From assembly GCA_003605035.1 (NCBI GenBank), contig QZKJ01000078.1, positions 163-64,162 on the forward strand: 64,000 nt of DNA, in the 5' to 3' direction. The first letter of the stretch is position 1. Every line of letters starts with the position of its first letter. This DNA comes from Desulfurivibrio sp. GTDB taxonomy: Bacteria; Desulfobacterota; Desulfobulbia; Desulfobulbales; SURF-16. The position numbers and the translations under genes are program-made. Below are positions 3,301-43,350 of the stretch, piece after piece. A model generated the notes under the pieces. It saw nothing but the letters and a program-made list of their open reading frames with translations. It did no database searches and was not told the origin of the DNA.

Positions 3301-6221
3301 CATTCTACCCCTGTGTTGTCCTGTCTTTTCAACTCAGGCCAGAAAATAGCCTGATAAATGGCGCCCTCACCGCCACGGGCCGATGAAATTACCGAAGCGG
3401 CGGAACCGGCCGAGGCTCTCTGGCGCAACTCATTGAATTTCTCCAGCAGATTTGATTCAAGCTCAGACGGATTGGCACTGACCAGGAGTTCGGTGCCGCC
3501 ATTGGTTGCAGCCGCCTCAATAATTTCATCAGGACTGCATTCGGTGTCACCGACATCTCTTAACGTACCAGTCACCACTATATGGGTGGTGATATTCTTT
3601 TTATCGTACATGGTGCCATCGTCAGAAGGGAGCTGGCTGTTTCCGGCAGGATAAAGAACGCTCGCATCCGCATGCTGGGCAAAATACGTCAGGTCGTCAA
3701 GGTAGGTGCTGCCGTCCAGGCCATCCGTGCATTTCGTATCACTCACCTGGTCACCATCATCAATAGGGGCACTGTTGACAAAATCAATGACATCCTGATT
3801 GATATCAGCAGTGGATGCGCCTTCAGTGATGATCAGCACATGATTTTCCTGACACCAGTTGGTAATGGGGTTTACCGTCGTATCGAAATCATCGACGCTC
3901 AGACGCATGGCCGTATTCTGGGTGTAGTAGCCTATGGCGTTGTACATGGCTTCGGCCAGCGGCGTCCAGGAGGTGGCCTGAATGCTGTTCACCTGTTGAA
4001 CGACATAATCGATATGACTGCCTGGACCGCTTGCCGCCACATCGGTTCCGAGCCTGATGCCGGCCAGGATTTTCGCGCCGTCCTTGTTGTCCGTCGGACA
4101 ATATTCCTGGATCGCGTCACTGGGGTCAACAGTCGTGCACTCGGTAAGGGCGCCCACGGCATTAAAGGCCATGACGCCGATGCGAAGATCCGCAGCAGTT
4201 CCCTGCAGCACCCCTTCAGGCTGCGTGGTCTGTTTCTTGTAACCTTTCATGACGATCAACGACCTGTCACCGCCGAAAAAGGAGGCAACGCCGGAGTCGA
4301 TCAGCACCGCGGGCATACTCCAGAACTCGCCGGTGTCAAAGATCTGATCCGAAGGATCAATGACTTCCGGAATCTCCATATAGCCGCAGTAATCCTCTAC
4401 AGCCTGCTGGATACAGGCATCAGCCGTGTTCGGGTTAAGATCATCCGTCCAATGGGCAGGAGCAGCCGCGGCAATATCAGCAGCGGTACAGGTGCCCGGA
4501 CCAGCTCCATCAGCATCGACGAGCACAAGGACCCAGGCCTTGTTACACTCGTCCTTGTTGCTGTTATAGTTTCCACTGCATTCATAAAGGTATCCATCCG
4601 TTCCACATCGCGGGTCGCCGATGGTCCCGACCGGCGGACCGCAGGAAACCGGCGCACACCCGGCCGGGATGGTGGCCGGCTCCCAGCAGCGCCCGATATA
4701 GCCGTCACGCAGATCATCCGGGATGCCAATGATATAGTCACCCGTGCAGATATAACCACTGCTTTCCGTCGTAATGGTTGCAGGGGGGATGTCGTGATCA
4801 TAGATATGTTCGCAGGAGGTTTTCACATCCGTTATGCCAACAGGAAAGGAGCCATGCTTCGAGTAATACCAGCAGTCATGCAGGGCATGGTTATAGGCGG
4901 CGTTTGACTCGGCCATGATATTGTTGGTCCCGCCGTAGTCAAGACAGTCGGTAATGTCCTGCTTGAGCGCACCCTGATTGACCACATCCTGCTGCAGCTC
5001 CGTAAGAGCGTCCTGGCAGGCTTGATATTGATCGCTGGCAATAAAACTACTGGCACTCAAGGCCAGGATGGAAATTCTGGTTGTGTCGTCTGTGCTGTCG
5101 ATCCAGTTCTCTTCACTCGCCCCCTGGATGGACAGAGTCAAAACCTTTCCATCAGACATGGTCACTTCCTTGAAGAAACCATGATCGGCGCAACCACGGT
5201 TCTGAGAAATAAGCCGCTGGGCGTCCTCATCAAATTTACCGCCGGTAAGAATTTTCTTCTGGATGTCAAATTTGGAAGAGGAGGCCCAGTTCAGAAAATT
5301 TCCTTTTGCTGCAAAAGCCGAAACCCGCGATTGGACATCTGAAGTACCGTCATTTACACTGACAATCTTCACGAAAAGATCGGTATGGCTTGAGGCAGCT
5401 CCCGGTTGAGCAGCAAAAGCAGTCGCGGCGTCGGCACTTGACGCATAAGCGGTTTCTTCGAAATAGCCTTCATCCAACCTGACCCAGTTCACGCCGGCAT
5501 CATCCCAGACGCCGGTGCCGTTTGATGTTCCGGAACTCGTTGCCTTGAAAAGCATGCCGCCATCACTGACAATGTCATTAACACTGTAGGCAGTGGTATT
5601 ACGCCAGGTTGAGTCAACAGAGACCCATGTCACTCCGGTATCTTCATAAATACTAAGACCGTTTGTCAGATCCGAATCACTGGCCGTGCCGCCGGCGACC
5701 GTATAAAAGAGTTGACCATCAAACTGGACGAAACTTTTGGCGGGATACACCTCACTGTGACGCCAGACATCAATGGTATAAACTGATGTCCACGTCACTT
5801 CGCTGTCAAAACCGATCTCAACGCCGGTGGAAGGACTGCCCGTGGCAGCAGTCGCTTTGTAGAAGACCCCCTCTGTATAGACAATATCCCCAACCGCATA
5901 AGTCGCTCCGCTCTTCCATGGCTGAACCCCTTCTGTCCATTTATACCATTTATCTGCCGTGTAATTTCCCGCATACTGGGTTCCTGATGCGTAACTGTTA
6001 TCAACGCACTCACCGGTGTTTGCAACATAAGCCATGTCGAGCATGGAGCCGGAATTATCAATCATCAGCAAAAGATTCGAGCGGACGCCGAAGGAAAGGA
6101 ACGGTGGCTCGCCAAGTCCGATGCCACAGGTATCCGCGTAGGATAAAGTCGGCGGAAGTACATGAATAACCAGTCCGAAGATCAGTAAATCAATGACAAG
6201 ATATCGTAGGAAAAGCCTCAT
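303..6221 (-). CDS. pilY1: giant PilY1-like type IV pilus tip adhesin (vWA-like MIDAS, CBM5/12-like repeats, Ca-binding DxDxDG blocks, C-terminal PilY1/PilC beta-propeller)
   Basis: 1972-aa ORF with an N-terminal hydrophobic signal-like segment. DNSGS MIDAS-type motif at nt 6045..6059. Three W-x5-Y-x2-(G/N)D-I-V...G-x-(F/L)(Y/F)-(K/T)-(A/V) repeats at about nt 5475..5918. Asp-rich blocks at 3056..3203 and 2461..2596. The C-terminal region carries WRLGDIIHSTP...YMGANDGMLHAVNGG...GWGTILVGGMRFGG, typical of PilY1/PilC. It is the last gene of the minor-pilin operon. Confidence 0.85.
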   Translation of the reverse strand: MRLFLRYLVIDLLIFGLVIHVLPPTLSYADTCGIGLGEPPFLSFGVRSNLLLMIDNSGSMLDMAYVANTGECVDNSYASGTQYAGNYTADKWYKWTEGVQPWKSGATYAVGDIVYTEGVFYKATAATGSPSTGVEIGFDSEVTWTSVYTIDVWRHSEVYPAKSFVQFDGQLFYTVAGGTASDSDLTNGLSIYEDTGVTWVSVDSTWRNTTAYSVNDIVSDGGMLFKATSSGTSNGTGVWDDAGVNWVRLDEGYFEETAYASSADAATAFAAQPGAASSHTDLFVKIVSVNDGTSDVQSRVSAFAAKGNFLNWASSSKFDIQKKILTGGKFDEDAQRLISQNRGCADHGFFKEVTMSDGKVLTLSIQGASEENWIDSTDDTTRISILALSASSFIASDQYQACQDALTELQQDVVNQGALKQDITDCLDYGGTNNIMAESNAAYNHALHDCWYYSKHGSFPVGITDVKTSCEHIYDHDIPPATITTESSGYICTGDYIIGIPDDLRDGYIGRCWEPATIPAGCAPVSCGPPVGTIGDPRCGTDGYLYECSGNYNSNKDECNKAWVLVLVDADGAGPGTCTAADIAAAAPAHWTDDLNPNTADACIQQAVEDYCGYMEIPEVIDPSDQIFDTGEFWSMPAVLIDSGVASFFGGDRSLIVMKGYKKQTTQPEGVLQGTAADLRIGVMAFNAVGALTECTTVDPSDAIQEYCPTDNKDGAKILAGIRLGTDVAASGPGSHIDYVVQQVNSIQATSWTPLAEAMYNAIGYYTQNTAMRLSVDDFDTTVNPITNWCQENHVLIITEGASTADINQDVIDFVNSAPIDDGDQVSDTKCTDGLDGSTYLDDLTYFAQHADASVLYPAGNSQLPSDDGTMYDKKNITTHIVVTGTLRDVGDTECSPDEIIEAAATNGGTELLVSANPSELESNLLEKFNELRQRASAGSAASVISSARGGEGAIYQAIFWPELKRQDNTGVEWAVDWVGDVHSLFIDQYGRMYEDSNSDRMMNPSEDVDGDGKLDNDEDVNANGIMDAGEDTDSDGHLDVYEDKDSDGVIDGDDKRVIIYFDTSANRSKGCYNTSIFYTGACTNSKELSAIKYLWSANDWLSRISNVVLSADASVPYGANDVFYNRNTYLSSEQRRYIFTWVDLNNDGDVDYATEVLPFVDRDGSGNAINWAGLGVSNRGLVAKDFSAADNDEVRQIIRWVRGADWTTEDIDGDGILDAGEDLDGDGHLDVFEDVNGNGILDAGEDVDGDGSLESPVRNRMIPAAEGSGTLSSWRLGDIIHSTPMTVAAPSEGFHLIYNDKSYAKFVSRYKNRRHMIYMGANDGMLHAVNGGFYSEKDNKFCLVSLNADGTCSDAAAAAPALGAEMWGYVPYNLLPHLKCLTEKDYAGAKHKYYVDLRPRLFDVKIFSEEAACTADYNDAACTHPQGWGTILVGGMRFGGAPVDAAADLGQPNTDNRQFISSYFILDITDPEKPPVLLGELTQTLSDSDGNLVPDSPNYVDLGFSTVVSTMSIMKDASVAPEVNKWYLILGSGPHGSDALKGVSDQDARISIVALNNLVDGNNLPVKSLRISAAAPVAGSPDGTFQLAGSPHGFVSDPITVDFDINPSMENYKSDAIYFGTVEGDFDATSSYWDGGGKMYRLVTRKLDLFGRSEYGTGASEPATEPYEWQIKTLIDLSSDVLDADGNPLHPAQPITASPSVGTDGKNFWVYFGTGRFFDANDKTDDTQQSYYGIKEPMTFVNPLDCTNSLRTFTWNEIELTASGAVPGEMGLLKVDEIEVHESTSPFTFVLSCVDGTTDCLPAGVVAAGGTYNILIDYFAGAYACTAAGYNGYADGWYRDFYPYTNRERNLGQGTLLGGLLTFTTYQPYEDTCLAEGLAYLYGVYYQTGTAWHQRIFGDYGIDILGNVEAKMSLGRGLAMTPSLYVGSGDEGDAGAGPKVFVQTSTGEIKEIQQQNLPFATKPGKYKWLEW

Positions 6222-6602
6222 ATCTTCACCCTATTGCAAGTAATGGATGGTAATAAACCTGAGAAAATAATTGACGATTTCGCCTAAAGCCACTTACCCG
6301 CAGTGCACCAGTCTAACTTCTTGATATTTCGTCAGGAGATGGTCAGTTTTCGAGCCTTTGCTGATAAAATTCTGCAAAACTAATAACTCAAGCTTCTGAT
6401 TTGTGGTAACATGTTGAAATTAAGCAAATATTTTCAGTCTGCCTGAAGATTATTTCCAGAGAATTCAGAAGCCTGAATAAAACGATATAAAATCAAACAT
6501 TCTGGATTCTGCCTCCTATCTTCGGAATTCCCATGACGGAGTTCAGAGCAGCAACTATGTCACAAAATACCGTGATAAAATAGATCAAGTCAGAAAGTTG
6601 AG

Positions 6603-7283
6603 CTAATAATTACAATCACCAGTCCAACCGACGGGAAAACGCCAGCCAAGCTGGATAATTGACCGGCTATCCACTCGTCCCTGATGAAGAGCGGTTACCT
6701 CATACAGTTTCAACACGCCGCCGCCGGCAGCGGATTTACCCTTCCCTTCATAGCCAGCGGCCATCTGTAACGCACCACCCGCCGCCATTTCAGTCCGACC
6801 GCCGATGTAAATATAAGAGACCCTCTGCGACCCGGCGGCATCCAGATCATCAAGATTTAACGTCGGGTCAACGGGCAAGGTGAACGAAACATCATTGAGA
6901 GCGTGGGCGTTGATATCGGCCTCGATAACGTTTTCGGCAAGGGAGGGATTTTGATACAACGCCAGTTCATTGCCATTGCGCTCGTAAACACGCACGACAC
7001 CTTCCAGATCGGCAACCGAGATACCACCGTCATCTGCCCCTGTTGATGAAAAACCCGTCGGGCAGTACAGATTCTGTTCAAGAACCTCCACGCCAACTGA
7101 AAGGCTGCCTTCCGCATTGTAAAAAGTCTCTTTGTGGACTTTCTCATTGCCCGCTATCTGCACCTCAATCGTCGTATTGGTTGTTGCCGCGACTCCGATA
7201 ATCACCAGAATCAGGAGAATAAGCAAGGAGGCGATCAGGACGAAGCCTCGCTCATTTTTTGCTATATTTTTCAGATGTATCAT
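6603..7283 (-). CDS. pilX: PilX-like type IV pilus minor pilin/assembly protein
   Basis: 226 aa. N-terminus MIHLKNIAKNERGFVLIASLLILLILVIIGVAA resembles the PilX N-terminal hydrophobic helix. Positioned between pilV and pilY1. Confidence 0.7.
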   Translation of the reverse strand: MIHLKNIAKNERGFVLIASLLILLILVIIGVAATTNTTIEVQIAGNEKVHKETFYNAEGSLSVGVEVLEQNLYCPTGFSSTGADDGGISVADLEGVVRVYERNGNELALYQNPSLAENVIEADINAHALNDVSFTLPVDPTLNLDDLDAAGSQRVSYIYIGGRTEMAAGGALQMAAGYEGKGKSAAGGGVLKLYEVTALHQGRVDSRSIIQLGWRFPVGWTGDCNY

Positions 7284-7290
7284 CGGGAAT

Positions 7291-7788
7291 TTATATGGAA
7301 TTTGATTTCATATAGGCCATGGTGACGGTACGTATCGTTCCGCCATCCTGCCTTTCAATAATTACATTAACCGTCTTGATATCAGGGAAAGGATAGTTCA
7401 CCGCAACATTCCAGTTAATTGTGTAATTACCGTCCGGAGAGGCTGATGTCCCATCCGCATTCGCACCGGTATCATCAAGACCGAAGTTGCCCCCGTCATC
7501 ATCTGTGCCGTCATTATTCGCATCCTCCCCAGTACCATCGCCGTCATCGTCATCAAGATCGGCGTCAGAATAGTTGAGCCCGATGAGCGTTTCGATGCGG
7601 TCGGATGCCCAAGACGATGACTCCGTTATCCTGTTCGCCGATGAATTGCCTTTTATGGCTGCTGTCTGCATGGCATTGACCGCCAGAATGCCGATGGTAA
7701 AAATAGCAACGGCAATCAAGACCTCGATGAGGGTAAAACCTGATTGACGGGAAGTCGCTATGGCCTGGGAAAAATTTCTCATGATCAC
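7291..7788 (-). CDS. pilV: PilV-like minor pilin (prepilin-type N-terminal cleavage/methylation domain)
   Basis: 165 aa. Leader ...SRQSG|FTLIEVLIAVAIF matches the class III signal (G/FTLIE). 4-nt ATGA overlap with pilW. Contains an Asp-rich DxDxDG insert. Confidence 0.8.
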   Translation of the reverse strand: MIMRNFSQAIATSRQSGFTLIEVLIAVAIFTIGILAVNAMQTAAIKGNSSANRITESSSWASDRIETLIGLNYSDADLDDDDGDGTGEDANNDGTDDDGGNFGLDDTGANADGTSASPDGNYTINWNVAVNYPFPDIKTVNVIIERQDGGTIRTVTMAYMKSNSI

Positions 7789-8405
7789 AAACCCATATTT
7801 CTGCAGTTGACCCTTTGGATCAACAGACGACGGCGAAGATAATCATTATAAGGCCCCCAAATTGTTCCTGAAAATGAAGCATATTGTTTCGAATTAAGAA
7901 AATTGGCATCAGAACCGCCAGCCCGGGCCAGAATCGAGATGACCACACTGCGAACTTCCTCAACGTCCGCGGTAACCGCATCGTCTTCATCAAGATATAC
8001 AAATTCAAGTTCTTCAATGTTCTGGGCGATGGGTTGAGTATTTCTTGTAATTTCCTTTTCTACAGTATCCAGAGCATAGGTAATATTTTCTCCAGAGTCG
8101 ACGACATCATCATCCTCATTGAGATCCATGCTAAAATTAATACTGGACGCAGTGATGGCAAGCAAAGCGGCTCCGGCTTTTCCTGTTGAATCATATCCTG
8201 CCATTTTTATCTCCCTGGTCATCATATCAAGTCCGGCACGGATATTCTGCTGCATTTCCGCAACCTGATCCTGAGCGGTATAACTGTTCTGCTGGGACTG
8301 AAACGCTGAATAAATTGAGGCTATAACAATACCGGAAATCAGCATGGTGATCAGTAATTCAATGAGGGTAAAACCCCTCTGCATATCTTCAACATGGGTT
8401 CTCAT
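7785..8405 (-). CDS. pilW: PilW-like minor pilin
   Basis: 206 aa. MRTHVEDMQRG|FTLIELLITMLISG prepilin motif. Gene order is GspH-like, W, V, X, Y1. Confidence 0.8.
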   Translation of the reverse strand: MRTHVEDMQRGFTLIELLITMLISGIVIASIYSAFQSQQNSYTAQDQVAEMQQNIRAGLDMMTREIKMAGYDSTGKAGAALLAITASSINFSMDLNEDDDVVDSGENITYALDTVEKEITRNTQPIAQNIEELEFVYLDEDDAVTADVEEVRSVVISILARAGGSDANFLNSKQYASFSGTIWGPYNDYLRRRLLIQRVNCRNMGL

Positions 8406-8451
8406 CTTTTAACATTTAACCCCGGTCTTATGAGATTCACGGTTGTCAACC

Positions 8452-8976
8452 TTATAACCTTTCCAAGGTCAAACCACCTGCAAGGGAAAGTGAAATCTGG
8501 TAACGTACATTATCATCGTTCCTCACTTGCACGTTACCAATTCGACTGCTCAACGGCAGCCCCCGCGCAGTAAAACCAGGAGTAGTGCTGCCTAAAGAAA
8601 AATTTACGCTATCCAGATCAACACTGGCAGGCATAGTGACATTGGCCAGAATTCTTTCATCCCCATTTTGCGTATCATCATCCGCGGTTCCGGTTGTTCC
8701 TCCATTATCAACAAAAACCTGATACGTTTCCGCACCGGCGTTAAAAGAGAGCACCACATTGCTGTTGGTTTTAATGGCCTCAATCCGGGCTTTCTGAAAA
8801 TTCGTATAAATCTCGCGGGCTGCTGCCTTGAGGCGATAATTGGCGATCCACTGAGAATAATTAGGTATCGCAATGGCCATCAGAACACCCATTATGGCCA
8901 TGACCACAATAAGCTCGACTGTCGTGAAGCCCTGACTGTTTCGATGCAATTTTGTTACTCGCTGGCGATATTTCAT
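8452..8976 (-). CDS. GspH/FimT/FimU-family minor pilin
   Basis: The ORF track extends to 9087, but the internal ATG at 8976 gives MKYRQRVTKLHRNSQG|FTTVELIVVMAIMG, a normal prepilin leader. First gene of the operon. Confidence 0.7.
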   Translation of the reverse strand: MKYRQRVTKLHRNSQGFTTVELIVVMAIMGVLMAIAIPNYSQWIANYRLKAAAREIYTNFQKARIEAIKTNSNVVLSFNAGAETYQVFVDNGGTTGTADDDTQNGDERILANVTMPASVDLDSVNFSLGSTTPGFTARGLPLSSRIGNVQVRNDDNVRYQISLSLAGGLTLERL

Positions 8977-9578
8977 GTTAAATTTTTTTTGTGGATTGCA
9001 TACCGCGTTTTCAAAATGCACAAATCGTACCTCCATGCAGCACACATAATTAGATGAAACAGCTTTTCCCATTTGATTGTCAAGCAAAAAGAAATACTTG
9101 CAAAATCAATGAGTCAGCCTGAATTTTCAAGAAAATTTCCTTTCCAATCGCCTCACCAGGGCGCAACTATAAAAAAAGTTTATCACGGTTGCCTGGCAAG
9201 CTACTAACAAAAAATTTTACCAGAGTAAGGGGTTGAAAAAGATTCACGGTCACGAGTACTTGACAAAAAACTGAGTGAGGGATGGCTATAATTCTTCAGA
9301 AAAACTACTGAAATTGCATGCAATTCCAAACAAAAGAATTTTCTGCTGGAAATGCTTTTTGCGTCTTCATGAGAAAAATGGACCCAACAATTTCCGTCTA
9401 AAAAATCTGCTCGAGTTATAATGAGTTACTGCAGTTCCTTGAAAGCTGTTGCTAGATTTTTTTAACGTCAACCCGGCCACAATGCTAAAAAAAATTAACA
9501 GTTTTTTTTGATGAAACAAATACAAATAAATGAAGGAAAAGCGGATACAGCAATCTGACAATAACAGGTAACGAATAT

Positions 9579-9834: not shown

Positions 9835-10302
9835 TCAGGGTCGCACCGCCCGGACAAATCCTTGTTTCGCTTTGACATACTTAAATTCATTTCCTCCGCA
9901 GAGAGGATATGATTCCCACCTGCCGGCATTTACCTCCTGTGATGGACTGACGCTCCAGTAATTATAATTATTGCCAAGCTTCATCATACAGTCGTTGTCC
10001 CCCAGCGCAGCAAGATAATGCAGCATATAAAGCTCTTTTCTTGTCGGCAACCGCCAATCGCCATACCCACCCAGGTTCAACCTTTCCGCATACTCCCTTG
10101 CTTCCTGCCAGGTGGAATACCTGGGGCTTTTATCAATCTGCCACAGCAGACCGTTATTGCTCTGCCGGCAGACCCCGTTGCCGAGATCAACCAACCCGGC
10201 TTGACGCTCTGCCGCAGGGGATGACCGATTTTGACCTGCGCCGGCACAAGCTGCCAGAATTGACAGCAGGAGAATCAACACAATGGATTTCGTTGCAGGC
10301 AT
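9835..10302 (-). CDS. DUF1566 (Lcl C-terminal domain)-like lipoprotein
   Basis: The internal ATG at 10302 gives MPATKSIVLILLLSILAAC (lipobox LAAC). LLWQIDKS...TWQEAREYAERLNLGGYGDWRLPTRKELYML matches the DUF1566 signature. Confidence 0.7.
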   Translation of the reverse strand: MPATKSIVLILLLSILAACAGAGQNRSSPAAERQAGLVDLGNGVCRQSNNGLLWQIDKSPRYSTWQEAREYAERLNLGGYGDWRLPTRKELYMLHYLAALGDNDCMMKLGNNYNYWSVSPSQEVNAGRWESYPLCGGNEFKYVKAKQGFVRAVRP

Positions 10303-10344
10303 ATGCTCCCCTGTACACCGGCCAACCACTTCACTTTCCAACAA

Positions 10345-10848
10345 TCAGGCCACATTGTAATGATTGTAGCACACTTCAACCTGCAGAGGGAAATCCCCAT
10401 ATCTTTCCCCGCAAATTTTCCCATTAATCACATAAACAACCCCGGCCTGGTTATCCATTACCTTGAAATGACGCAGATATTCCTGGATGGAGACCATGCC
10501 CTGATCATAAAAATAAGTGGAAGCCAGAAAAAAGGCCGGGATGACCACACTGGCATTGTGCCGTAAAGTGACGGAGATGCTGACCATGCGACTCCGCATA
10601 TTGCCGATCAGTTCATTGCCGCTGAAGAGCAATATCTTCCAGGAGGAATTATTGGTGAGCTGCACATGGGGCACACCAGCAAAATGATCCACCTGGACAA
10701 CCTCGACCAATCCCTGAGCAAAAGCCTCGTCATATGGCAGCAATGCCTTATCGTCGTTAAGGATTATCGTGTTTTCAGCACTGTTAAAAAAACTGATTAC
10801 CGGCAGCAGTTCCGGTGTTTCTGTCCATGCCTGCATGATTCTTCCCAT
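10345..10848 (-). CDS. hypothetical protein, divergent ARPP-1/DUF6569-like
   Basis: ATG at 10848 is preceded by GGAGG with a 5-nt spacer. The pattern YDEAFAQGLVEVVQV..AGVPHVQLTNNSSWKILLFSGNELIGNMRSRMVSISVTL...VIPAFF parallels the ARPP-1 core (ldEAl..G.v.i.Ev...G.V..l.v.N....pvLll.GeeLvGakQNR.ln.sill....t..iPVsCvE), but QNR and CvE are not conserved. Confidence 0.45.
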   Translation of the reverse strand: MGRIMQAWTETPELLPVISFFNSAENTIILNDDKALLPYDEAFAQGLVEVVQVDHFAGVPHVQLTNNSSWKILLFSGNELIGNMRSRMVSISVTLRHNASVVIPAFFLASTYFYDQGMVSIQEYLRHFKVMDNQAGVVYVINGKICGERYGDFPLQVEVCYNHYNVA

Positions 10849-10940
10849 GATACCCTCCACTTTTTTATTTTTCTTGCATTCCTTCACCTTTTCTCTCACC
10901 ATACAGACAGAGGTAGGACAGATAGTGTCCGACCAGCTCA

Positions 10941-11960
10941 ATGAAAGAAAAAAAAATGCAAAAATTCAAACCGCAACACAGCCGTCTGCTCTTTATCGAC
11001 AAGAAGATCAGGGACAGAACCTATCCGAACTGCACATCACTGGCCGAGGAATGGGAAGTCAGCGCAAAAACGATCCAGCGTGATCTGGATTACATGCGGG
11101 CCATGCTTGACGCCCCCATGGCCTATGACGCCGGAAAGCGCGGCTACTACTATACGGAAGAGAGCTTTCACCTGCCGGCAATCGTCTTGACCGACAGCGA
11201 TCTCTTTGCCGTGTTCATTGCGGAAAAGGTCCTCCAGCAGTATGAAAACACGCCGATTTACCCCAGACTGCAATCTCTTTTCGCCAGGATTGCCGAATCC
11301 CTGCCGGACAAAATCACCATTGACCCGGCCCAGTTACATGACAGATTCTCCTTTTTCAGCAGCCCCCACAGCATGATAGCGACACAGGTATGGGAAACCG
11401 TCTTCACTGCCCTGCGCACCTCGCAATCCCTGCACATCAGCCATGCCAAACCGGGCGCAACCGATCTCGCGCAACGCACGATCGATCCCTACCATGTGGT
11501 CAATTACCAGGGGGAATGGTATGTGATTGCTTTCTGCCAGGCACGCCACGATATCCGCACCTTTGCCCTCTCCCGCATTGACAAGGCGCAGTTAGCCGGC
11601 GAGCATTTCACGGTTCCCGCGGATTTTGATTTTCAACAAACAACCCGGGATCGTTTTGGTATACAATGGAGTGATAAGCAGTATGCTGTCAGGATATGGT
11701 TTTCACCGGCGGCAGCGCCCTACATCCGGGAAAGGCAATGGCACCAGGGCCAGCAGATTCAGGAAAACAGCGATAAAAGCATTATGATGACGTTTACCGC
11801 GAGCCATCTGCTGGAGATTAAAAAATGGGTGCTCTCCTGGGGCTGTATGGCCCGGGTTCTCGCGCCCCGTACCCTGGCAGACGACATACGAAGAGAGCTT
11901 GCCTCAGCAATGGGAAATTATGGAGGAAATGATGAAGAAAGAGCTCATCAAACTGGTTGA
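10941..11960 (+). CDS. HTH-WYL-WCX transcriptional regulator (YafY/CapW/BrxR-like architecture)
   Basis: 339 aa. N-terminal HTH ([39 protein letters not shown]). WYL core [35 protein letters not shown]-like C-terminal domain. The start could instead be the ATG at 10956. Confidence 0.85.
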
Positions 11961-12441
11961 GACAGACATTACCACCCTGGCAGTTGATGCCATTGTCAAT
12001 GCCGCCAACTCTTCCCTGCTGGGAGGAGGCGGGGTCGACGGCGCGATCCACCGGGCCGCCGGGCCGGAACTGCTGGCCGAATGCCGCACCTTAGACGGCT
12101 GCCCCACCGGCGAGGCAAAGATCACCAAGGGCTACAGGCTGCCTGCCCGTTTTGTCATTCATACAGTGGGCCCGATCTGGCGGGGGGGCAAGCATGAGGA
12201 ACCACAGCTTCTGGCCGCATGCTATCGCAGCACCTTCAAGATTGTCCAGGCCAGACACCTTGAGACCATAGCCTTCCCGGCCATCAGCACCGGCGCCTAC
12301 GGCTTTCCGGGCAAGGAGGCGGCAAGGATTGCGGTGCGGGAAACCCTGATGGCGGCCGAGCAGCTCCCCTTTCTGCAACAGGTCATCTTCGTCTGTTTCA
12401 ACCCGGACACCAGAGAAGCCTATGAGGAAGCCCTGCAATGA
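11932..12441 (+). CDS. YmdB-type macrodomain protein (O-acetyl-ADP-ribose deacetylase / ADP-ribose-binding)
   Basis: [48 protein letters not shown]...[13 protein letters not shown] are canonical macrodomain motifs. GGAGG lies 5 nt upstream of the ATG at 11932. Overlaps the 3' end of the WYL gene. Confidence 0.9.
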
Positions 12442-13619: not shown

Positions 13620-14941
13620 CAACGACACAGAGAAACAATGGTCTCCAGATGATGGGTCTGGGGAAACATATCCACCATCTGCATCTTTTCCACCCCATAC
13701 CCTTCCCTTTCAAGGATGACCAGATCCCGGCACAAGGTGGCCGGGTCGCAGGAGATATAGATGATCCGCGTGACCCCGAGTTCAGACAGGTAAGGGATGA
13801 CTTCAGCACATCCCTGCCGTGGCGGATCAAGCAGGGCCAGAGCAAACCTCTCCCCGCCTGCGGCAAGGCTCTTTGCCCCTGCCAGCGCTGAAGCCTGGGT
13901 GAAGATGCTGTTCTCAATGCCGTTTATCCCGGCATTGCGCCTGGCGCTGCGGATGGCTGAGCGCTGCAGGTCCATGCCGACAACGGATAGCGCCTGCCGG
14001 GCAAGAGGCAGGGAAAAATTCCCCATGCCGCAGAAGAGATCAAGAACCTTATGCCCGTCAGCAAGCTTTGCCCATTCCAGCACCAGGGCAATAAGCTGCT
14101 CATTCTGCTCGGCATTGACCTGGCAGAATCCCCCCGGCTCAATGCTCATCCTGAGGTGGTCACCAGCAGGCATGGCATGGGAGAAAGAGAGCAGAGACTG
14201 CTCATCACCGACCTGGCCGCCTGGAAAAACCTCAGCAATGGCTGAGTCCGCCGTCTTGGCGATCACCTGTTTGATGCTGCTGTGACCGGCAGCCAGCTCT
14301 TCAAGCACTTTCCGTTCAGCCGGCCTCGCTTTTCTGGACAGATGCAGGCAAATGACCACGAGTTCATCGGCCGCACTCAGTAACAGTTCGACCGAGGTGG
14401 TCAAAGCGGCAATGGCGGCAAGGGGAGACTGATTGATCAGGTAAGCCAGCACGTTATTCAGCGGCGGTCTGGCCAGCAGGCAGGCGCTGACTGGTATCAC
14501 CTCATGGGATTGACTGCGGTGAAAGCCGGGTTTTCCATCTTTTCCCACATGCAGCCTGATACGCTGCCGGTAATGAAATGCCTGCGGGGCAAGCAAGGGA
14601 GGAAGAAGAAATGCACTGCTGTCTTGTTGCAGGCCTGACCGCTCAAGCTGCTCACGCAGAATCCGGTTTTTCAGATCCGCCTGGTTTTCGGAAAGGACGT
14701 GCTGGAAATCGCAGCCGCCGCATTGGGGGAAATAAGGACAGGGAGGCTCGGTGCGATCTGCTGATGCCTGCAGAATTTTGACGGCACGCGCCTCGATGTA
14801 GTTCTTTTTTCTGCTGACCGGTCGAATTTCCACCTCCTCGCCGGGCAGGACATAAGGCACCAGCACCACCTTGCCGTCCGGCAGCCGGCCCAGGCCGCTG
14901 CCGCCGATCACCAGTTTTTCAATGTGTACGGTTAATGCCAT
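13616..14941 (-). CDS. rlmD: 23S rRNA (uracil-5)-methyltransferase, RumA/RlmD family
   Basis: 441 aa. N-terminal TRAM-like domain. CPYFPQCGGCDFQH Fe-S cysteines. SAM motif DLFCGMGNFSLPLA. LDPPRQG and ISCDPATLCRDL. Confidence 0.88.
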   Translation of the reverse strand: MALTVHIEKLVIGGSGLGRLPDGKVVLVPYVLPGEEVEIRPVSRKKNYIEARAVKILQASADRTEPPCPYFPQCGGCDFQHVLSENQADLKNRILREQLERSGLQQDSSAFLLPPLLAPQAFHYRQRIRLHVGKDGKPGFHRSQSHEVIPVSACLLARPPLNNVLAYLINQSPLAAIAALTTSVELLLSAADELVVICLHLSRKARPAERKVLEELAAGHSSIKQVIAKTADSAIAEVFPGGQVGDEQSLLSFSHAMPAGDHLRMSIEPGGFCQVNAEQNEQLIALVLEWAKLADGHKVLDLFCGMGNFSLPLARQALSVVGMDLQRSAIRSARRNAGINGIENSIFTQASALAGAKSLAAGGERFALALLDPPRQGCAEVIPYLSELGVTRIIYISCDPATLCRDLVILEREGYGVEKMQMVDMFPQTHHLETIVSLCRC

Positions 14942-15003
14942 TTACGGTATTTTGTCGCAAGAGAGCAAAAGTGTGAATACAACCATATAATATTATTGCG
15001 TTT

Positions 15004-15041
15004 AAAGCAAAAATCCCGTCAAACGCGACGTCCGACGGGAT
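15004..15041 (-). terminator. rho-independent terminator after the PEP-CTERM-like gene
   Basis: The minus strand reads ATCCCGTC-(13 nt)-GACGGGAT followed by TTTTGCTTT, 29 nt after the stop at 15070. Confidence 0.5.
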
Positions 15042-15069
15042 AGGTATTTATCTGTTTACAAAAGGTATA

Positions 15070-15615
15070 TCAGCGGGTTTTCCGTCTTAAGACAACCAGG
15101 CCGGCTAAACCAGAAGCGAGGAGCCATACTGTGCCAGGGAGAGGAACACTTGCACTGTAAGCATATGCCTTGCCCTCATCTCCAAAATTCATCGCTCTGA
15201 CCCGAAAACCTCCCGGATAGTAGCCATCTAGCTGCTCATCGCAAAACAAGGAAAAATTCACCAGAGAAAAGGGTGAATTGCCCGCCAACTTTAAAATAAC
15301 GCCTGCGGATAGATCTTCAGTTCCCCAGTTATTATATCCATACACACCACTCGAGGTTTTTACTATTTCCCACGAGTCAGCAGGGACAACCCCGGGAAAC
15401 CCCGCCCCGTCGACATCCGCGACAGATGAGTATTGAACCACCAAATCCAGATCATCAATAACAACGTCATTGGCGACATCTAACTGGAACCCATCAATAA
15501 GGGAATAATCAGAAAATGTATGATCAATACCTACATAAACAGTATAAGCAAAAACAGGAACGGAACTAAACAGCACGATGACCAATGAAGCAAATATCAT
15601 TTTTAAATTTTTCAT
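15070..15615 (-). CDS. secreted protein with PEP-CTERM/VPLPA-CTERM-like sorting signal
   Basis: 181 aa. Signal peptide MKNLKMIFASLVIVLFSSVPVFA. The C-terminus VPLPGTVWLLASGLAGLVVLRRKTR has the motif + TM + basic tail layout of exosortase substrates. Confidence 0.7.
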   Translation of the reverse strand: MKNLKMIFASLVIVLFSSVPVFAYTVYVGIDHTFSDYSLIDGFQLDVANDVVIDDLDLVVQYSSVADVDGAGFPGVVPADSWEIVKTSSGVYGYNNWGTEDLSAGVILKLAGNSPFSLVNFSLFCDEQLDGYYPGGFRVRAMNFGDEGKAYAYSASVPLPGTVWLLASGLAGLVVLRRKTR

Positions 15616-15659
15616 TTGTTTCTCCTTTTAATCATACATCCTGATGCTTCAAAAAATTA

Positions 15660-16442
15660 TCAATGAGTGATTTTATAAACGATGCAACTTCGATCAGCAC
15701 CATTAACTATGCCGTCGGCATTACAATCCATCCAGGGGTAAGCAACTCCACCATTTACCATATAATAGACAACGGCGCTTCTATCTGCTCCATTGATTAC
15801 CCCATCACCATTCGCATCCCCGCGTTCATAAATTTTCACACCAGGGAAAGCCACACCTGTCAAATCAAGCACGGCTTCACTGGTGGAAACAAAATTTGCA
15901 TACACATCAGGCGCAGGCCGCACAACACCGAGCCCGAGGGAAACGCCAAAATAGCCGCTTGCATTGCCGGTTGCTGCATCCTTGTCAGGGGTACTGTTTT
16001 CAGAACGGGCAAACGTAACCTTACCAAGCAGCTTCCGTGCCCCGGTGACCCCGGCAGTCGGGGCATTCTCATCAATTTTCCCGTTGATAAAAACCACTTC
16101 TCCCACATCGGTGTTGATCTGAGGGTCCTGATAGGGGTATTTGGCGCCATCGGGTGTACCGAAATACCAGTCAGCTTCATTTTTGATTGCGGTGGGGGCA
16201 GAACCGGCAGGATCAGTTGCCGGATCAACGGGATAAAATCTGCTTTTATCATAAGCCAGTTTTACTCCGGCGCTGACCAGAGGATCGGCATTGATGTCAA
16301 CGTAGAGGTAAATAACCAGATTCGTCTCCGTATATGCCCCTTCTGCGTAGACATCAACATCTGCGGCCATTGCCGTGCCGCCTGACCCAATGATGACAGC
16401 GGAAAGGATTGCCGCAATACCGAATGTTGTTTTCTTCTTCAC
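15660..16442 (-). CDS. secreted protein with cohesin-like N-terminal domain and C-terminal dockerin-type duplicated Ca-binding repeats
   Basis: 260 aa. GTG start with GGAGG upstream. Signal peptide ...GGTAMA. C-terminus GDANGDGVINGADRSAVVYYM...DCNADGIVNGADRSCIVYKI is the dockerin type I pattern (DxNxDGxIxxxD, twice). The cohesin call is weaker, resting on a beta-sandwich-like V.L.YD..F motif. Confidence 0.65.
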   Translation of the reverse strand: MKKKTTFGIAAILSAVIIGSGGTAMAADVDVYAEGAYTETNLVIYLYVDINADPLVSAGVKLAYDKSRFYPVDPATDPAGSAPTAIKNEADWYFGTPDGAKYPYQDPQINTDVGEVVFINGKIDENAPTAGVTGARKLLGKVTFARSENSTPDKDAATGNASGYFGVSLGLGVVRPAPDVYANFVSTSEAVLDLTGVAFPGVKIYERGDANGDGVINGADRSAVVYYMVNGGVAYPWMDCNADGIVNGADRSCIVYKITH

Positions 16443-16517
16443 CTCAGCCCCTCCAGAATTATGCTCCCTCTCCGTAATCCAGGTGTCGGTGGAACCTGAA
16501 CCTATCCAATTACTGAC

Positions 16518-16533
16518 AGCAAATCAGGTGCCA
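16518..16533 (-). promoter_or_regulatory. sigma54 promoter (perfect TGGCAC-N5-TTGCT) upstream of the cohesin/dockerin gene
   Basis: Reverse complement of 16518..16533 is TGGCACCTGATTTGCT. It lies about 75 nt upstream of the GTG start at 16442. A GGAATTA-N7-TAATTCC palindrome at 16649..16669 sits about 120 bp further upstream. Confidence 0.55.
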
Positions 16534-16772
16534 TTTGCTTCATTTGCACACCATCAAAAAATGTCTTTTATTTCAATGGGTAAATTAACCTGCAACGAAA
16601 ATGGGCCAGGAAAAGTCATAAAAAGCGGACAGTCTCATTCGTTTTTCTGGAATTAGTGGCGGTAATTCCGGGAAAAAGGAAACACCGTGACGCTAGGCCA
16701 GACTGAAAGGTCTGACAAGCAACTTGCCGGAAAATCTGATAAAAAAGACAAACCCTGCAGGTCCGACATTTT

Positions 16773-17288
16773 TTAATATTTCTTGTCGGCGTAGGCCAGC
16801 CAGCCGCCAGCCAGCACCAGGTCCTTGTCAAAGGAATTGAGCGTGAATTTACAGGTGAATTCCTTTGTTCCTCGGGCAATAAGGGTTTCCTTGTCCATGT
16901 CAATCGAAACGGTTACCTCAGGCCCGACAGCAAAAAGGGCGTCAATGTCTTTCTTGGGCAACTCAATGGCCAGCATGCCGCAGTTGAACATATTCTGCCG
17001 GAAAATCCTGGCAAAACTCTCGGCAATGACCACATTGATGTTATTCACCTCAAAGACCCAGACCGCGTGTTCCCGGGAGGAGCCGCAACCGAAATTGGCG
17101 CGGGTGACGATGACTCCGGCCCCTCTGGTATTGACCGCCGGATCAAAGCCAGGCAGTTTCAGATCCTCCAGGATAAAGGGTTTGAGGTCCTCCTTGGTGT
17201 TTTCCGTCAGATATTTCGCCGGAATAATCTCATCTGTATTGATATTGCTTCTGTCCAGAAAAAGGACCGGACCGCCGAATGTCTTCAT
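16773..17288 (-). CDS. leuD: 3-isopropylmalate dehydratase small subunit (archaeal/type-2 LeuD)
   Basis: MKTFGGPVLFLDRSNINTDEIIPAKYL...GCGSSREHAVW. The ATG at 17288 is preceded by GAGG. The track ORF extends to a GTG at 17399 through a 9-bp repeat array. Confidence 0.9.
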   Translation of the reverse strand: MKTFGGPVLFLDRSNINTDEIIPAKYLTENTKEDLKPFILEDLKLPGFDPAVNTRGAGVIVTRANFGCGSSREHAVWVFEVNNINVVIAESFARIFRQNMFNCGMLAIELPKKDIDALFAVGPEVTVSIDMDKETLIARGTKEFTCKFTLNSFDKDLVLAGGWLAYADKKY

Positions 17289-17300
17289 AACAACCTCGTA

Positions 17301-17390
17301 GGGTTTGTTGGGTTCGTTGGGTTTATTGAGTTTGTTGAGTTTGTTGAGTTTGTTGAGTTTGTTGGGTTTGTTGGGTTTGTTGGGTTGAGG
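17301..17390. repeat. 9-bp tandem repeat array, ten units (GGGTTTGTT/GAGTTTGTT), between leuC and leuD
   Basis: Units read directly: GGGTTTGTT GGGTTCGTT GGGTTTATT GAGTTTGTT x4 GGGTTTGTT x2 GGGTTGAGG. In frame with leuD this encodes (P/L)NK repeats. Confidence 0.9.
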
Positions 17391-17395
17391 CCGTT

Positions 17396-18679
17396 TCACA
17401 GCATCTCCCGGGGATCGGTGATGCAGCCTTTCACCGCCGCGGCGGCTGCGGCAAGCGGGCTCATCAGGTGAACCATGCCGCCCTTGCCCATGCGTCCGTT
17501 GAAATTGCGGTTGGTGGTGGAGGCACAGACCTCGCCCGGGGCCAGCACCCCGTTGCTCATGCCCAGACAGGCGCCGCAGGTGGGGTTGGTCACACAGAAG
17601 CCGGCCTCCATGAAAATCCTGATCAACCCCTCGTCCAGGGCCTGGCTGTAAACCTTGGGGGTGGCCGGCGAAAGGATGGCCCGTACATGGTCGGCGATTT
17701 TCCGGCCCTTGAGTATTTCCGCGGCCACCCGCAGATCTTCAATGCGGCCGTTGGTGCAGGAACCCATGTAAACCTGGTCGATTCTGGCCCCGGCCATGTC
17801 GGTGATGTCCTTGACCTCATCGGGCTTGTAGCCGTAAGTCACCTGCGGCGCCAGTCCGGTTACGTCAAAGGTCTTTTCCGCCGCATAGCCGGCATCGGCA
17901 TCGGAATGCCATTTGCGGAAATCAGCCACCGCCGCCTCGACATCTTGATACTGATCCTGGATAAAGGGCCAGAGGTACTCGGCGGTAACCCGGTCTGGCA
18001 GACACACCCCGCAGGTGGCGCCGGCCTCGATGGCCATGTTGCACACCGTCATGCGGCTCTCCATGCTCATGCCATCCACCACCGGGCCGCGGAACTCCAT
18101 CACCTTGTCGGTGGCGCCGTTTACGGTCAGTTCCTTGATGACCCTGAGGATGACATCCTTGGCATAAACCCCTTTGCCAAGTTTTCCGGCAATGGTGATC
18201 TTCATGGTTTCCGGCAGACGGAAGGAACAGACCCCCTTGAGAATGCCGACCTCCAGATCCGTGGTGCCGACGCCCGCGGCAAAGGCACCGAAGGCCCCGT
18301 GGGTGCAGGTGTGCGAGTCGCCCATGATCACCGTGTAACCGGGGCGGATAAATCCTTTTTCCGGAAACAGGGCATGGCAGATCCCGTTGGCGCCGATATC
18401 AAAAAAATCATTGATATGATTGCGCCTGGCCCAATCCCGCAGAATCTTGGCCTGGATGGCTGTCTTGGTATCCTTGGACGGCGTGACATGGTCAATCACC
18501 ACTTTAATCTTTGCCGGATCAAATACCCTGTCCATGCCTCTCGCCTTCAGATCATTGACGGCGATCGGGGTGGTAATTTCGTGGCACATGACCACATCTA
18601 TATCAAGCACGACGTTATGAGCCGAGGGAACGTCCCGTTGGTGGGCCTCAAAAATCTTCTCCGTGATGGTTTTACCCAT
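17396..18679 (-). CDS. leuC: 3-isopropylmalate dehydratase large subunit (aconitase family, archaeal-type LeuC)
   Basis: 427 aa. Aconitase-family Fe-S cysteines (GDSHTCTHGA, GSCTNGR, CGACLG). Directly upstream of leuD. Confidence 0.93.
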   Translation of the reverse strand: MGKTITEKIFEAHQRDVPSAHNVVLDIDVVMCHEITTPIAVNDLKARGMDRVFDPAKIKVVIDHVTPSKDTKTAIQAKILRDWARRNHINDFFDIGANGICHALFPEKGFIRPGYTVIMGDSHTCTHGAFGAFAAGVGTTDLEVGILKGVCSFRLPETMKITIAGKLGKGVYAKDVILRVIKELTVNGATDKVMEFRGPVVDGMSMESRMTVCNMAIEAGATCGVCLPDRVTAEYLWPFIQDQYQDVEAAVADFRKWHSDADAGYAAEKTFDVTGLAPQVTYGYKPDEVKDITDMAGARIDQVYMGSCTNGRIEDLRVAAEILKGRKIADHVRAILSPATPKVYSQALDEGLIRIFMEAGFCVTNPTCGACLGMSNGVLAPGEVCASTTNRNFNGRMGKGGMVHLMSPLAAAAAAVKGCITDPREML

Positions 18680-42211: not shown

Positions 42212-42227
42212 TGGCACACCGCCTGCT
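42212..42227 (+). promoter_or_regulatory. candidate sigma54 promoter (TGGCACACCGCCTGCT)
   Basis: GG at 42213-14 and GC at 42225-26 are 12 nt apart. The -12 box is CTGCT versus the TTGCW consensus. It lies 245 nt upstream of the OMP gene, with a MITE in between. Confidence 0.4.
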
Positions 42228-42471: not shown

Positions 42472-43350
42472 ATGAAAAATCCGGGAACACAGTCACTGCT
42501 CCTGGCAGGCTCCCTCATACTGGCGTTTCATACCCCGGTGCTGGCTGATAACGACGCCCGGGATTACATCCCCCTGGAACCCGGCACCACCTTGATCGCC
42601 GCCTATTACAATTACATCAGCGCCACCGATTTTTACGCGGATGGCGACAAAATCAACAGTGACACAAATCTAAGTGCCAATATCGGCATATTAAGGCCTG
42701 TTTATTATACCAAGCTGGGTCCCTTTGTCATCGACCCCCAGATGCTGATCCCCTTTGGTGAGCAATCACTGGATGGCGACGGAGTGGGCGGAGTGGAAAT
42801 CAGCTCATCAGGCCTGGCTGACCCCATTGTCACTGCCACCATCTGGCTGGTCAACGATCCCGCATCAAAGACCTGGCTTGGCTTCACCCCCTTCATCACC
42901 GTGCCGCTGGGTGAATATGACGAGGATAAGGCATTGAATATGGGGGCAAACCGCTGGGCCTTCAAACCGGAGGTCGGTTTTGTCAAAGGCTTTGGCAACT
43001 ATTTTTTTGAACTCACCGGCAACTGCGAATTTTATACGGACAACGATGACTTTTCCGCGCAGTCACTCACCCTGGAACAGGATCCCGTCTATACCCTGGA
43101 AAGTCATCTGAGTTATAATTTCAGCGATGCTTTTTATATCTCCGGCGATTACTTCTACCACAACGGCGGCGAGACCACCCTTGCCGGCATTGATCAACAT
43201 GATGAGAAAGATGATCATGCCGTGCAGCTTACCCTGGGTTTCCTGCTTAATCCCTCCTATCAGCTGCTTCTGAAATACAAAACTGATATCGAAGTGGAAA
43301 ACGGCCTGAAAACCAACACCGTCGGGCTGCGTTTCGCCCATTTCTTTTAA
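42472..43350 (+). CDS. outer-membrane beta-barrel protein (MetA-pathway/'transporter' OMP family-like)
   Basis: 292 aa with a signal peptide ...HTPVLA. DARDYIPLEPGTTLIAAYYNY is the N-terminal motif of that family. Alternating beta-strand pattern, and a C-terminal GLRFAHFF beta-signal. Confidence 0.6.
   Translation: MKNPGTQSLLLAGSLILAFHTPVLADNDARDYIPLEPGTTLIAAYYNYISATDFYADGDKINSDTNLSANIGILRPVYYTKLGPFVIDPQMLIPFGEQSLDGDGVGGVEISSSGLADPIVTATIWLVNDPASKTWLGFTPFITVPLGEYDEDKALNMGANRWAFKPEVGFVKGFGNYFFELTGNCEFYTDNDDFSAQSLTLEQDPVYTLESHLSYNFSDAFYISGDYFYHNGGETTLAGIDQHDEKDDHAVQLTLGFLLNPSYQLLLKYKTDIEVENGLKTNTVGLRFAHFF

Follow-up and report, generated by a model that had tools for sequence, protein, structure and literature searches.

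Within a 64 kb stretch of the Desulfurivibrio sp. contig QZKJ01000078.1 (hereafter the window, which means the whole stretch analysed), two adjacent genes, termed here gene 1 and gene 2, are best explained as a self-contained two-gene operon in a Desulfurivibrio-type (Desulfobulbaceae) genome. The first encodes a predicted secreted protein in which a signal peptide is followed by a domain with a cohesin-like fold and a C-terminal dockerin, and the second a small exported protein that ends in a sorting signal of the PEP-CTERM type. The reading preferred here, held with a confidence a little above even, is that of a sigma-54-controlled, probably PrsR-type, bicistronic operon for minimal surface docking, with gene 2 as the anchor and gene 1 as the adaptor. 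An initial annotation of this DNA had reported an exact TGGCAC-N5-TTGCT element about 75 nt before a GTG start with a GGAGG Shine-Dalgarno sequence, a GGAATTA-N7-TAATTCC palindrome upstream of that promoter, two dockerin-type repeats at the end of gene 1 (DANGDGVINGADRS, DCNADGIVNGADRS), a gene 44 bp downstream with a sorting-type tail, a terminator after it and a composition more AT-rich than that of the neighbouring genes; each of these features is present (Table 1). The 44 nt between the stop of gene 1 and the start of gene 2 contain no terminator. Upstream of gene 1 lies an intergenic region of 330 nt, and a terminator-like hairpin after the preceding gene isolates the cassette as its own transcription unit. 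The GC content of the two genes is 0.41-0.52, against 0.57-0.62 for their neighbours.

Both calcium loops of the gene 1 dockerin are canonical (D-x-N-x-D-G-x-(I/V)-x-x-x-D), with helices at residues 218-230 and 248-259 in the structural model. Pfam Dockerin_1 (PF00404) matches 37 of 42 family members at E <= 0.01, with a best E of 4e-11, and the best PDB matches of the family profile are type I dockerins (E 4e-5); judged from these profiles, the dockerin identity is secure at the family level. Extraction of both 22-residue repeats from 50 family members revealed a pattern of conservation in which repeat 1 equals repeat 2 within the same protein at positions 9, 10, 11, 13, 14, 17, 18 and 20 in 72-96% of cases, while the same eight positions are identical between different proteins in 15-38%. 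The repeat pair thus reads NGADRS/NGADRS in the window and NFQDML/NFQDML, TPADMI/TPADMI or TNSDFF/TNSDFF in other family members. Recent gene conversion between the two repeats was considered as the origin of this symmetry and rejected, as about half of the identical residues use different codons (42 of 88 identical residue pairs, from 14 loci); the symmetry therefore appears to be kept by selection on the protein. In type I dockerins, contacts with the cohesin are made by positions 10, 11, 17 and 18 of each repeat, and the dual binding mode arises from the duplication of these contact residues. Symmetry within proteins, coupled with variation between them, suggests a partner surface that differs between lineages, and the dockerin looks functional and specific at these putative recognition positions. 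Two cysteines of repeat 2, Cys240 and Cys253 (15723-15725 and 15684-15686, minus strand; DCN...xxC), are present in at least 90% of the family and absent from repeat 1; a disulfide between them may be the one departure from a two-fold symmetry that is otherwise strict.

The N-terminal part of gene 1 is recognisable by its predicted structure. An AlphaFold2 model built from 42 sequences, with a predicted local distance difference test score (pLDDT) of 86 and a predicted template modelling (TM) score of 0.82, shows residues 29-206 as a beta-sandwich, with the two dockerin helices after it. In a Foldseek search of the PDB with this model, cohesins (types I, II and III) take all of the top 22 places, at E values of 4e-6 to 1e-3 and target-normalised TM scores of 0.33-0.66. 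Sequence profiles give a different picture: Pfam Cohesin (PF00963) matches none of the 42 family members at E <= 0.01, NCBIfam has no match for gene 1, and a profile of the N-terminal domain retrieves only its own 278 clusters, far below the number expected if canonical cohesins were matched. Gene 1 is thus modelled as a signal peptide, a cohesin-fold domain and a dockerin, the likeness to cohesins being structural only. The initial annotation had called the protein cohesin/dockerin-like and had proposed hmmscan as a check; its dockerin stands at the family level, and its cohesin, guessed at the time without evidence, is borne out as a fold but finds no counterpart in the Pfam Cohesin model. 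Of the profile matches whose absence the initial annotation had named as refuting, the cohesin half is thus lacking.

Across the family, the mature N-terminus of gene 1, ADVDVYAEGAYT, hardly varies. A profile search with the N-terminal domain, run exhaustively, yielded 278 clusters at 50% identity with E <= 0.001, of which 233 have E <= 1e-10, and nearly all members are proteins of 230-250 residues with the domain directly after the signal peptide. A few longer relatives carry the same domain fused to Calx-beta, PKD, TSP3, FG-GAP, CARDB, fn3 or LamG modules, and in one relative that contains VWA the cohesin-like domain lies near the C-terminus. The modules fused to it are all of extracellular adhesion or calcium-binding types.

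Gene 2 is composed of a signal peptide (residues 1-23), a fast-evolving, beta-rich body (24-156) and the sorting signal VPLPGTVWLLASGLAGLVVLRRKTR (157-181; 15073-15147), with which the protein ends. This tail follows the order typical of such signals, a motif, a hydrophobic helix and a basic cluster at the extreme C-terminus. It scores 23.6 bits against Pfam PEP-CTERM (PF07589), for which the threshold is 20.7, and is barely over the cut-off of TIGR03370 VPLPA-CTERM (25.5 versus 25.35), a model that also matches 11 of 13 relatives. The description of gene 2 as PEP-CTERM-like has therefore held, and the identical protein is on record at NCBI, from a Desulfurivibrio sp. metagenome-assembled genome (MAG; Desulfobulbaceae, Thermodesulfobacteriota), with the annotation PEP-CTERM sorting domain protein. 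The Pro-Glu-Pro motif itself does not occur in the gene 2 family, which has VP(L/I/V)P, without Glu, in its place. Gene 2 changes much faster than gene 1, and sequence searches recover only two relatives from the single sequence and 14 from a profile. The AlphaFold2 model of the body, predicted to be beta-rich, is poor (pLDDT 59).

The two genes form a conserved cassette, as the initial annotation of a two-gene module implied. Gene 1 has 144 full-length relatives of about 240 residues, all from Desulfobacterota-type metagenomes or MAGs, and a scan of one genome per species added 29 loci, 26 of them with a near full-length match, from Desulfobulbaceae, Desulfobacteraceae, Desulfatitalea, Desulfospira, Desulfobacter and the cultured Desulfosarcina variabilis Montpellier, in whose complete genome (NZ_CP159846.1) the cassette lies near 6.60 Mb; OY761554.1 and OY759748.1 carry it as well. 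In about 30 of the 33 loci for which the sequence extends far enough, the next gene after gene 1 is of the gene 2 type, encoding 156-219 residues with a signal peptide and the C-terminus (V/I/T)P(I/V/L/M)P-x2-4-(W/L)LL-GxGL-x5-8-RRK. The gap between them is 11-64 nt in most of these roughly 30 loci and 133-201 nt in three. Close relatives share one gene order (aconitase large and small subunits, gene 1, gene 2, an RlmD-like methyltransferase, an M20 peptidase, Macro and WYL), while in distant relatives the pair lies in entirely different neighbourhoods. The parts of the cassette have diverged to different extents, mean pairwise identity being 0.50 for the gene 1 N-terminal domain, 0.43 for the dockerin and 0.25 for the gene 2 body. 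Several MAGs carry two copies on different contigs (loci L020/L021, L017/L031 and L028/L038), with different dockerin recognition residues and gene 2 bodies; L020 has DTRD/DTRD where L021 has an NVAD-type repeat, and the L038 copy is truncated. At L005, which shares its contig region with L020, the gene directly upstream of the cassette (3332-5221) encodes an S8 peptidase in which Dockerin_1 matches faintly. It stands amid genes for surface proteins of very large size that carry TSP3, CarboxypepD_reg and Lcl_C domains, and its product is a possible dockerin-bearing client of the cohesin-like domain.

A partner for the dockerin is suggested by the way in which the parts of the cassette vary together. 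Pairwise identities were compared across 22 loci by Mantel tests with 5000 permutations, the gene 2 body being taken without its signal peptide and sorting tail. Dockerin and gene 2 body correlate with a Spearman coefficient (rs) of 0.42 (p 0.0002), which is 0.41 as a partial correlation given the cohesin domain and 0.38 when close pairs are left out. The cohesin-like domain is not correlated with the gene 2 body (rs 0.08, p 0.19) and only weakly with the dockerin of its own protein (rs 0.17, p 0.03). Individual pairs of loci illustrate the pattern: L006 and L025 have identities of 0.50 in the cohesin domain, 0.80 in the dockerin and 0.53 in gene 2, and for L028 and L030 the corresponding values are 0.47, 0.75 and 0.43. 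Such co-variation is what a cognate pair of dockerin and gene 2 product would give.

The element proposed to drive the cassette, TGGCACCTGATTTGCT, is an exact TGGCAC-N5-TTGCT with GG and GC 10 nt apart, its 3' end 75 nt from the GTG, and is the sole exact TGGCAC-N5-TTGCW in the window. By chance the exact motif is expected 0.15 times per window, and at least one occurred in 15 of 100 shuffles; with one mismatch allowed, the window holds three sigma-54 matches against 3.5 expected. Taken alone, the exact motif is weak evidence and is not significant. The promoter call, first made from the single sequence, gains weight because of the position, orientation and conservation of the motif. Across eight related Desulfobulbaceae loci TGGCA[CT]-N5-TTGCT is invariant, in an intergenic alignment that otherwise has a mean column identity of 63% and many indels. 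The family was also scanned over 450 nt upstream of 28 non-redundant loci, with GG-N10-GC sites scored at seven further consensus positions, and a score of at least 5/7 was reached at 16 of the 28 on the sense strand compared with 2 of 28 on the antisense control. Fourteen of the 16 sense motifs lie 157-221 nt before the YAEGAY motif, and the other two at 304 and 368 nt. A simple scan of the 330-nt intergenic region detected no sigma-70-like site, and an Rfam scan of 14900-16900 gave only a chance rox1 match (E 0.4), with no known RNA element in the leader.

Two further elements upstream of the promoter are candidates for protein binding. The centre of the palindrome lies about 127 nt upstream of the -24 GG, and its arms, GGAAT.A/TAATT.C, are conserved around a variable spacer in seven of the eight related Desulfobulbaceae loci; a 7+7 palindrome by itself is not rare by chance. 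Between palindrome and promoter, the TTTACCCnTTGAAATAAAAGnnTTTTTT block is near-invariant in the eight close loci (alignment A4) and ends 45 nt before TGGCAC; counted from the -24 element, TTTACC lies at about -51. Of 12 non-redundant upstream regions, 6 contain TTTAC[AC], where 1.8 would be expected (p ~0.006). Downstream, in alignment A4, two inverted repeats, TGGCA...TGCCA and CCCCAAC...GTTGGGG, shortly precede the ribosome-binding site in the leaders of L002, L012, L014 and L015, and a 20-nt deletion in the window leader takes out the first of these (TGGCA...TGCCA).

This arrangement resembles that of known PEP-CTERM genes, most of which have upstream regions of more than 200 nt in proteobacteria (Haft et al. 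2006, PMC1569441). The PEP-CTERM box described there begins with motif 1, 17 nt long and with TTTACA at its end, which is separated by 62.8 +/- 10.6 nt (range 32-92) from a sigma-54 motif at a mean of 71 nt from the start. Genomes with this pattern also have PrsR, a sigma-54 activator, together with the kinase PrsK and the TPR protein PrsT (PMC1569441). In Aquincola, pepA depends on RpoN and its transcription start has been mapped at TGGCAC/CTGCTT (PMC9850573), and the PrsR homologue DVUA0057 of Desulfovibrio vulgaris bound promoters of PEP-CTERM genes in DAP-chip experiments. Sigma-54 control of PEP-CTERM genes is thus an already established pattern and no novelty (PMC1569441, PMC9850573). 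In common with the PrsK-PrsR-RpoN regulon, the cassette has a tripartite C-terminal sorting signal, a long (330 nt) upstream region, a sigma-54 motif 75 nt before the start where the published mean is 71, and TTTACC at a 45-nt spacing where TTTACA at 32-92 nt is published, a likeness in hexamer and spacing. Regulation of the PrsR or 'PEP-CTERM box' type is, on these signals, probable. The cassette departs from the regulon in that its signal is the VP(L/I/V)P of the VPLPA-CTERM variant and not PEP, its PEP-CTERM gene is the second of a two-gene operon instead of forming a single-gene operon, its promoter directly precedes a non-PEP-CTERM protein, and no PrsK, PrsR, PrsT or exosortase is seen in the sequence examined.

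The analysis shows the promoter motif with its conservation, the anatomy of the operon, the cohesin fold, the dockerin and its symmetric repeats, the sorting signal, the conserved cassette and the co-variation of dockerin and gene 2; dependence on RpoN and an activator, exosortase processing, surface location, contact between dockerin and gene 2, and a ligand for the cohesin-like domain are inferences. In the mechanism proposed, transcription would start from the sigma-54 promoter with the help of an AAA+ activator bound upstream, for which the PrsR / 'PEP-CTERM-box' type is the likeliest, with the palindrome and the TTTACC block serving as activator and/or DNA-bending sites, and would stop at the hairpin after gene 2. 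Both products would be exported through their Sec signal peptides. The VPLPA/PEP-CTERM-type tail of gene 2 would then be recognised by an exosortase-family enzyme, so that the protein stays attached to the cell surface or within the exopolysaccharide layer. The adaptor would be gene 1, its symmetric, calcium-dependent dockerin plugging into the body of the cognate gene 2 product in a lineage-specific pairing, and its conserved cohesin-fold domain would be displayed outward, free to bind some conserved ligand, perhaps a dockerin-bearing protein or a component of the matrix.

A number of observations weigh against this docking mechanism. The window protein itself falls short of the Pfam Dockerin_1 threshold (E 0.0037; 17.9 bits versus 22.9). 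The body of gene 2, considered as a cohesin or a paralogue of the gene 1 domain, was rejected on an hhalign probability of 0.1 against that domain; a profile search of the PDB found no cohesins, only chance matches to rotavirus VP4 and FABP, and Foldseek with the poor model gave a best E of 0.3, though cohesins recur among the weak matches. The body is accordingly not called a cohesin. A recognisable -24/-12 motif is absent from about 40% of the 28 loci scanned. No exosortase, rpoN, PrsK/PrsR or other sigma-54 activator was found in the 64 kb window (Pfam, about 40 of 50 long open reading frames (ORFs)), nor an exosortase or rpoN among the called genes within 6-10 kb on either side of the cassette, or less at contig ends, in 10 relatives. 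The sole activator around the cassettes of these 10 is one unrelated-looking Sigma54_activat gene, 8.4 kb away at L045. With no exosortase, rpoN or activator in the sequence examined, sorting and enhancer dependence remain at the level of inference. The scheme also demands that the gene 1 product cross the outer membrane. Finally, the dockerin-gene 2 correlation could arise from physical linkage, the two being encoded adjacently so that recombination at the 3' end moves both; co-transfer of the 3' end of gene 1 with gene 2 would, however, itself suggest a functional unit.

Other scenarios assign the dockerin a different role. One is head-to-tail self-assembly, in which each dockerin binds the cohesin-like domain of the next gene 1 protein to build chains or a lattice, with gene 2 as a co-expressed surface or matrix protein or a terminal anchor. 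The presence of both modules in one polypeptide fits this scheme, as does the symmetric dockerin, which would suit bridging, and Archaeoglobus fulgidus has a protein with both a cohesin and a dockerin. Self-assembly is nevertheless considered unlikely, since the putative recognition residues of the dockerin vary widely between orthologues while the cohesin-like domain, their supposed receptor, is the most conserved part (0.50 versus 0.43), and the two co-vary weakly (rs 0.17, p 0.03). Moreover, the longer relatives, with their Calx-beta, PKD, TSP3 and FG-GAP fusions, have no detected dockerin, so the domain can do without one in its own polypeptide. A second scenario dispenses with a specific partner altogether: the dockerin-like repeats would be EF-hand-type loops that bind calcium, stabilise the protein or contact polysaccharide, and the two genes would encode co-regulated but independent biofilm or floc matrix proteins in the manner of PepA. 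EF-hand models do match a few family members, PepA-type PEP-CTERM proteins act in floc formation without known protein partners (PMC9850573), and the tail of gene 2 matches that of the floc_PepA model. This scenario appears improbable all the same, as it would have to explain why selection keeps symmetry at helix-face positions that vary between orthologues, which is hard without a co-evolving partner surface, why the genes remain strictly adjacent in unrelated contexts, and why dockerin and gene 2 co-vary.

PepA, the floc-forming PEP-CTERM protein of Zoogloea and Aquincola (PMC9850573), can be compared with gene 2 directly. Both are small, secreted proteins with a PEP-CTERM-type tail, RpoN-dependent in the case of PepA, and the tail of gene 2 matches the C-terminal ~26 positions of the PepA model NF033554. 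The likeness is limited to the last ~27 residues of gene 2, with 24.8 bits against a cut-off of 80, and a score so far under the cut-off indicates that gene 2 is no PepA equivalog. As for transcription, the sigma-54 motif might be fortuitous, with the genes read instead from a sigma-70-type promoter that escaped recognition or from transcripts that run on from the aconitase-like genes. Chance alone would give 0.15 exact matches per window, and some 40% of family loci have no good motif; yet invariance at eight loci within an otherwise diverged intergenic region, strand-specific enrichment (16/28 versus 2/28), the terminator upstream and the simple scan, which returned no sigma-70-like site, make a chance motif very improbable.

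Surface docking by an adaptor and an anchor is reminiscent of the cellulosome, in which cohesin-dockerin pairs are the textbook case of high-affinity protein connectors. With the adaptor scaffoldins of cellulosomes gene 1 shares a dockerin of two calcium loops, with a two-fold symmetry like that of dual-binding-mode type I dockerins, and a cohesin-fold beta-sandwich, and the logic of adaptor plus anchor is the same. The cassette differs in having no glycoside hydrolases, carbohydrate-binding modules or multi-cohesin scaffoldin, in a cohesin-like domain that Pfam Cohesin does not detect, in its Gram-negative host among the Desulfobacterota, and in a proposed anchor, gene 2, that carries an exosortase-type signal instead of SLH or sortase attachment and whose body cannot be recognised as a cohesin. 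The rest of the window contains no second two-repeat dockerin and no further PEP-CTERM motif, and no glycoside hydrolases lie nearby. The cassette is thus not a cellulosome and looks unrelated to cellulose degradation; the 'cellulosome-like scaffold' of the initial annotation was too strong a term for one cohesin-like module accompanied by neither enzymes nor a carbohydrate-binding module.

Further counterparts may be the 'adhesins' of anaerobic methanotrophic archaea (ANME) and Seep-SRB bacteria, small secreted proteins of anaerobic sediment organisms with cohesin and/or dockerin domains, which have been proposed to act in adhesion or partner recognition (PMC9012536, PMC10553843). One locus of the gene 1 family (L032) comes from a Seep-SRB2 E20 MAG. 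Those adhesins were found by standard domain annotation and reported without close homologues in other Desulfobacterota, whereas the gene 1 family is widespread in that phylum and has a fixed partner gene; the two groups are set apart here by their descriptions only. Since expressed adhesins had already been noted in syntrophic Desulfobacterota (PMC10553843), cohesin/dockerin biology in this lineage cannot be called essentially unexplored, as it initially was. Both sigma-54-controlled PEP-CTERM genes and non-cellulosomal cohesin/dockerin proteins are known already. In the literature searched, no paper was found that combines cohesin, dockerin and PEP-CTERM, nor was the fixed, widespread cassette or evidence for an exosortase-anchored, non-cohesin partner of a dockerin.

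Table 1. Features of the two-gene cassette and its surroundings; coordinates are those of the 64 kb window, and the genes and elements of the cassette all lie on the minus strand.
Feature	Coordinates	Strand	Remarks
Terminator-like hairpin and T run	16749..16765	-	After the upstream aconitase-small-subunit-like gene
Palindrome GGAATTA-CCGCCAC-TAATTCC	16649..16669	-	Candidate upstream activator (enhancer-binding protein) site
Conserved block TTTACCCATTGAAATAAAAGACATTTTTT	16556..16584	-	Candidate PEP-CTERM-box-like motif 1 or DNA-bending site (integration host factor (IHF)-type)
Sigma-54 -24/-12 element TGGCACCTGATTTGCT	16518..16533	-	Predicted transcription start near 16507
Shine-Dalgarno GGAGG	16450..16454	-	7 nt upstream of the gene 1 GTG
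Gene 1	15660..16442	-	260 aa, GTG start at 16442
Gene 1 signal peptide MKKKTTFGIAAILSAVIIGSGGTAMA	16365..16442	-	Residues 1-26; cleavage site inferred by inspection
Gene 1 cohesin-like beta-sandwich domain	15825..16364	-	Residues 27-206
Gene 1 dockerin	15663..15824	-	Residues 207-260; calcium-loop-plus-helix repeats DANGDGVINGAD, DCNADGIVNGAD
Gene 2	15070..15615	-	181 aa
Intrinsic terminator after gene 2	15013..15041	-	13-bp stem with 7 GC pairs, then TTTTTGCTTT

Elsewhere in the window, the long ORFs annotated with Pfam include genes for minor pilins of a type IV pilus, for an oligopeptide ABC transporter, and for central metabolism and ion transport, as well as a WYL/Macro/ARPP-1 group. The minor-pilin cluster (303-9087, minus strand) comprises a GspH-like protein, two N_methyl pilins, PilX_N and a PilY1-like protein of 1972 residues with a CBM_5_12 match; a single dockerin-like or EF-hand calcium loop, DKDSDGVIDGDD, lies at 3057-3092. 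Genes for Lcl_C, ARPP-1, a WYL/WCX regulator and a Macro-domain protein, at 9835-12441 beside an M20 peptidase, are syntenic in L001-L003, and by its composition the group looks defence- or stress-related. Upstream of the cassette, the ORF at 16773..17399 (minus strand) contains at 17301-17386 a 9-nt tandem repeat, GGGTTTGTT, in 9.6 copies with 92% matches, through which the aconitase-small-subunit-like gene, in its longest ORF, acquires the N-terminal extension 'NKPNKPNKLNKLNKL...'. As relatives have 171 residues, the start of this gene is probably the internal MKTFGG, and the repeat would then be part of the spacer that separates the two aconitase-family genes. Another sigma-54 motif close to the consensus, TGGCACACCGCCTGCT, is intergenic at 42212-42227 (plus strand), about 245 nt upstream of a gene for an outer-membrane channel of the Phenol_MetA_deg family (42472-43350).

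To our knowledge, the partners and anchors of cohesins and dockerins outside cellulosomes are mostly unknown, and very few PEP-CTERM proteins have an assigned role. The cassette provides a minimal, widespread and compact case in which gene adjacency and co-variation suggest the partner of a dockerin. A bolder proposal, which is speculative and for the present rather improbable, is that the dockerin and the gene 2 body form a diversifying lock-and-key, such that each lineage or paralogous cassette would display through exosortase an orthogonal surface 'address', a code for kin or partner recognition and aggregation among sulfate-reducing and sulfur-cycling Desulfobacterota, including those of syntrophic consortia; this would be the first exosortase-anchored system of the cohesin-dockerin type, with a receptor that is no recognisable cohesin. 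If the pairing of dockerin and gene 2 is true, it would represent a new tether of dockerin proteins to Gram-negative cells, would offer protein engineering a panel of naturally orthogonal dockerin-receptor pairs, and would provide a candidate mechanism of aggregation and partner recognition in sulfate-reducing communities.

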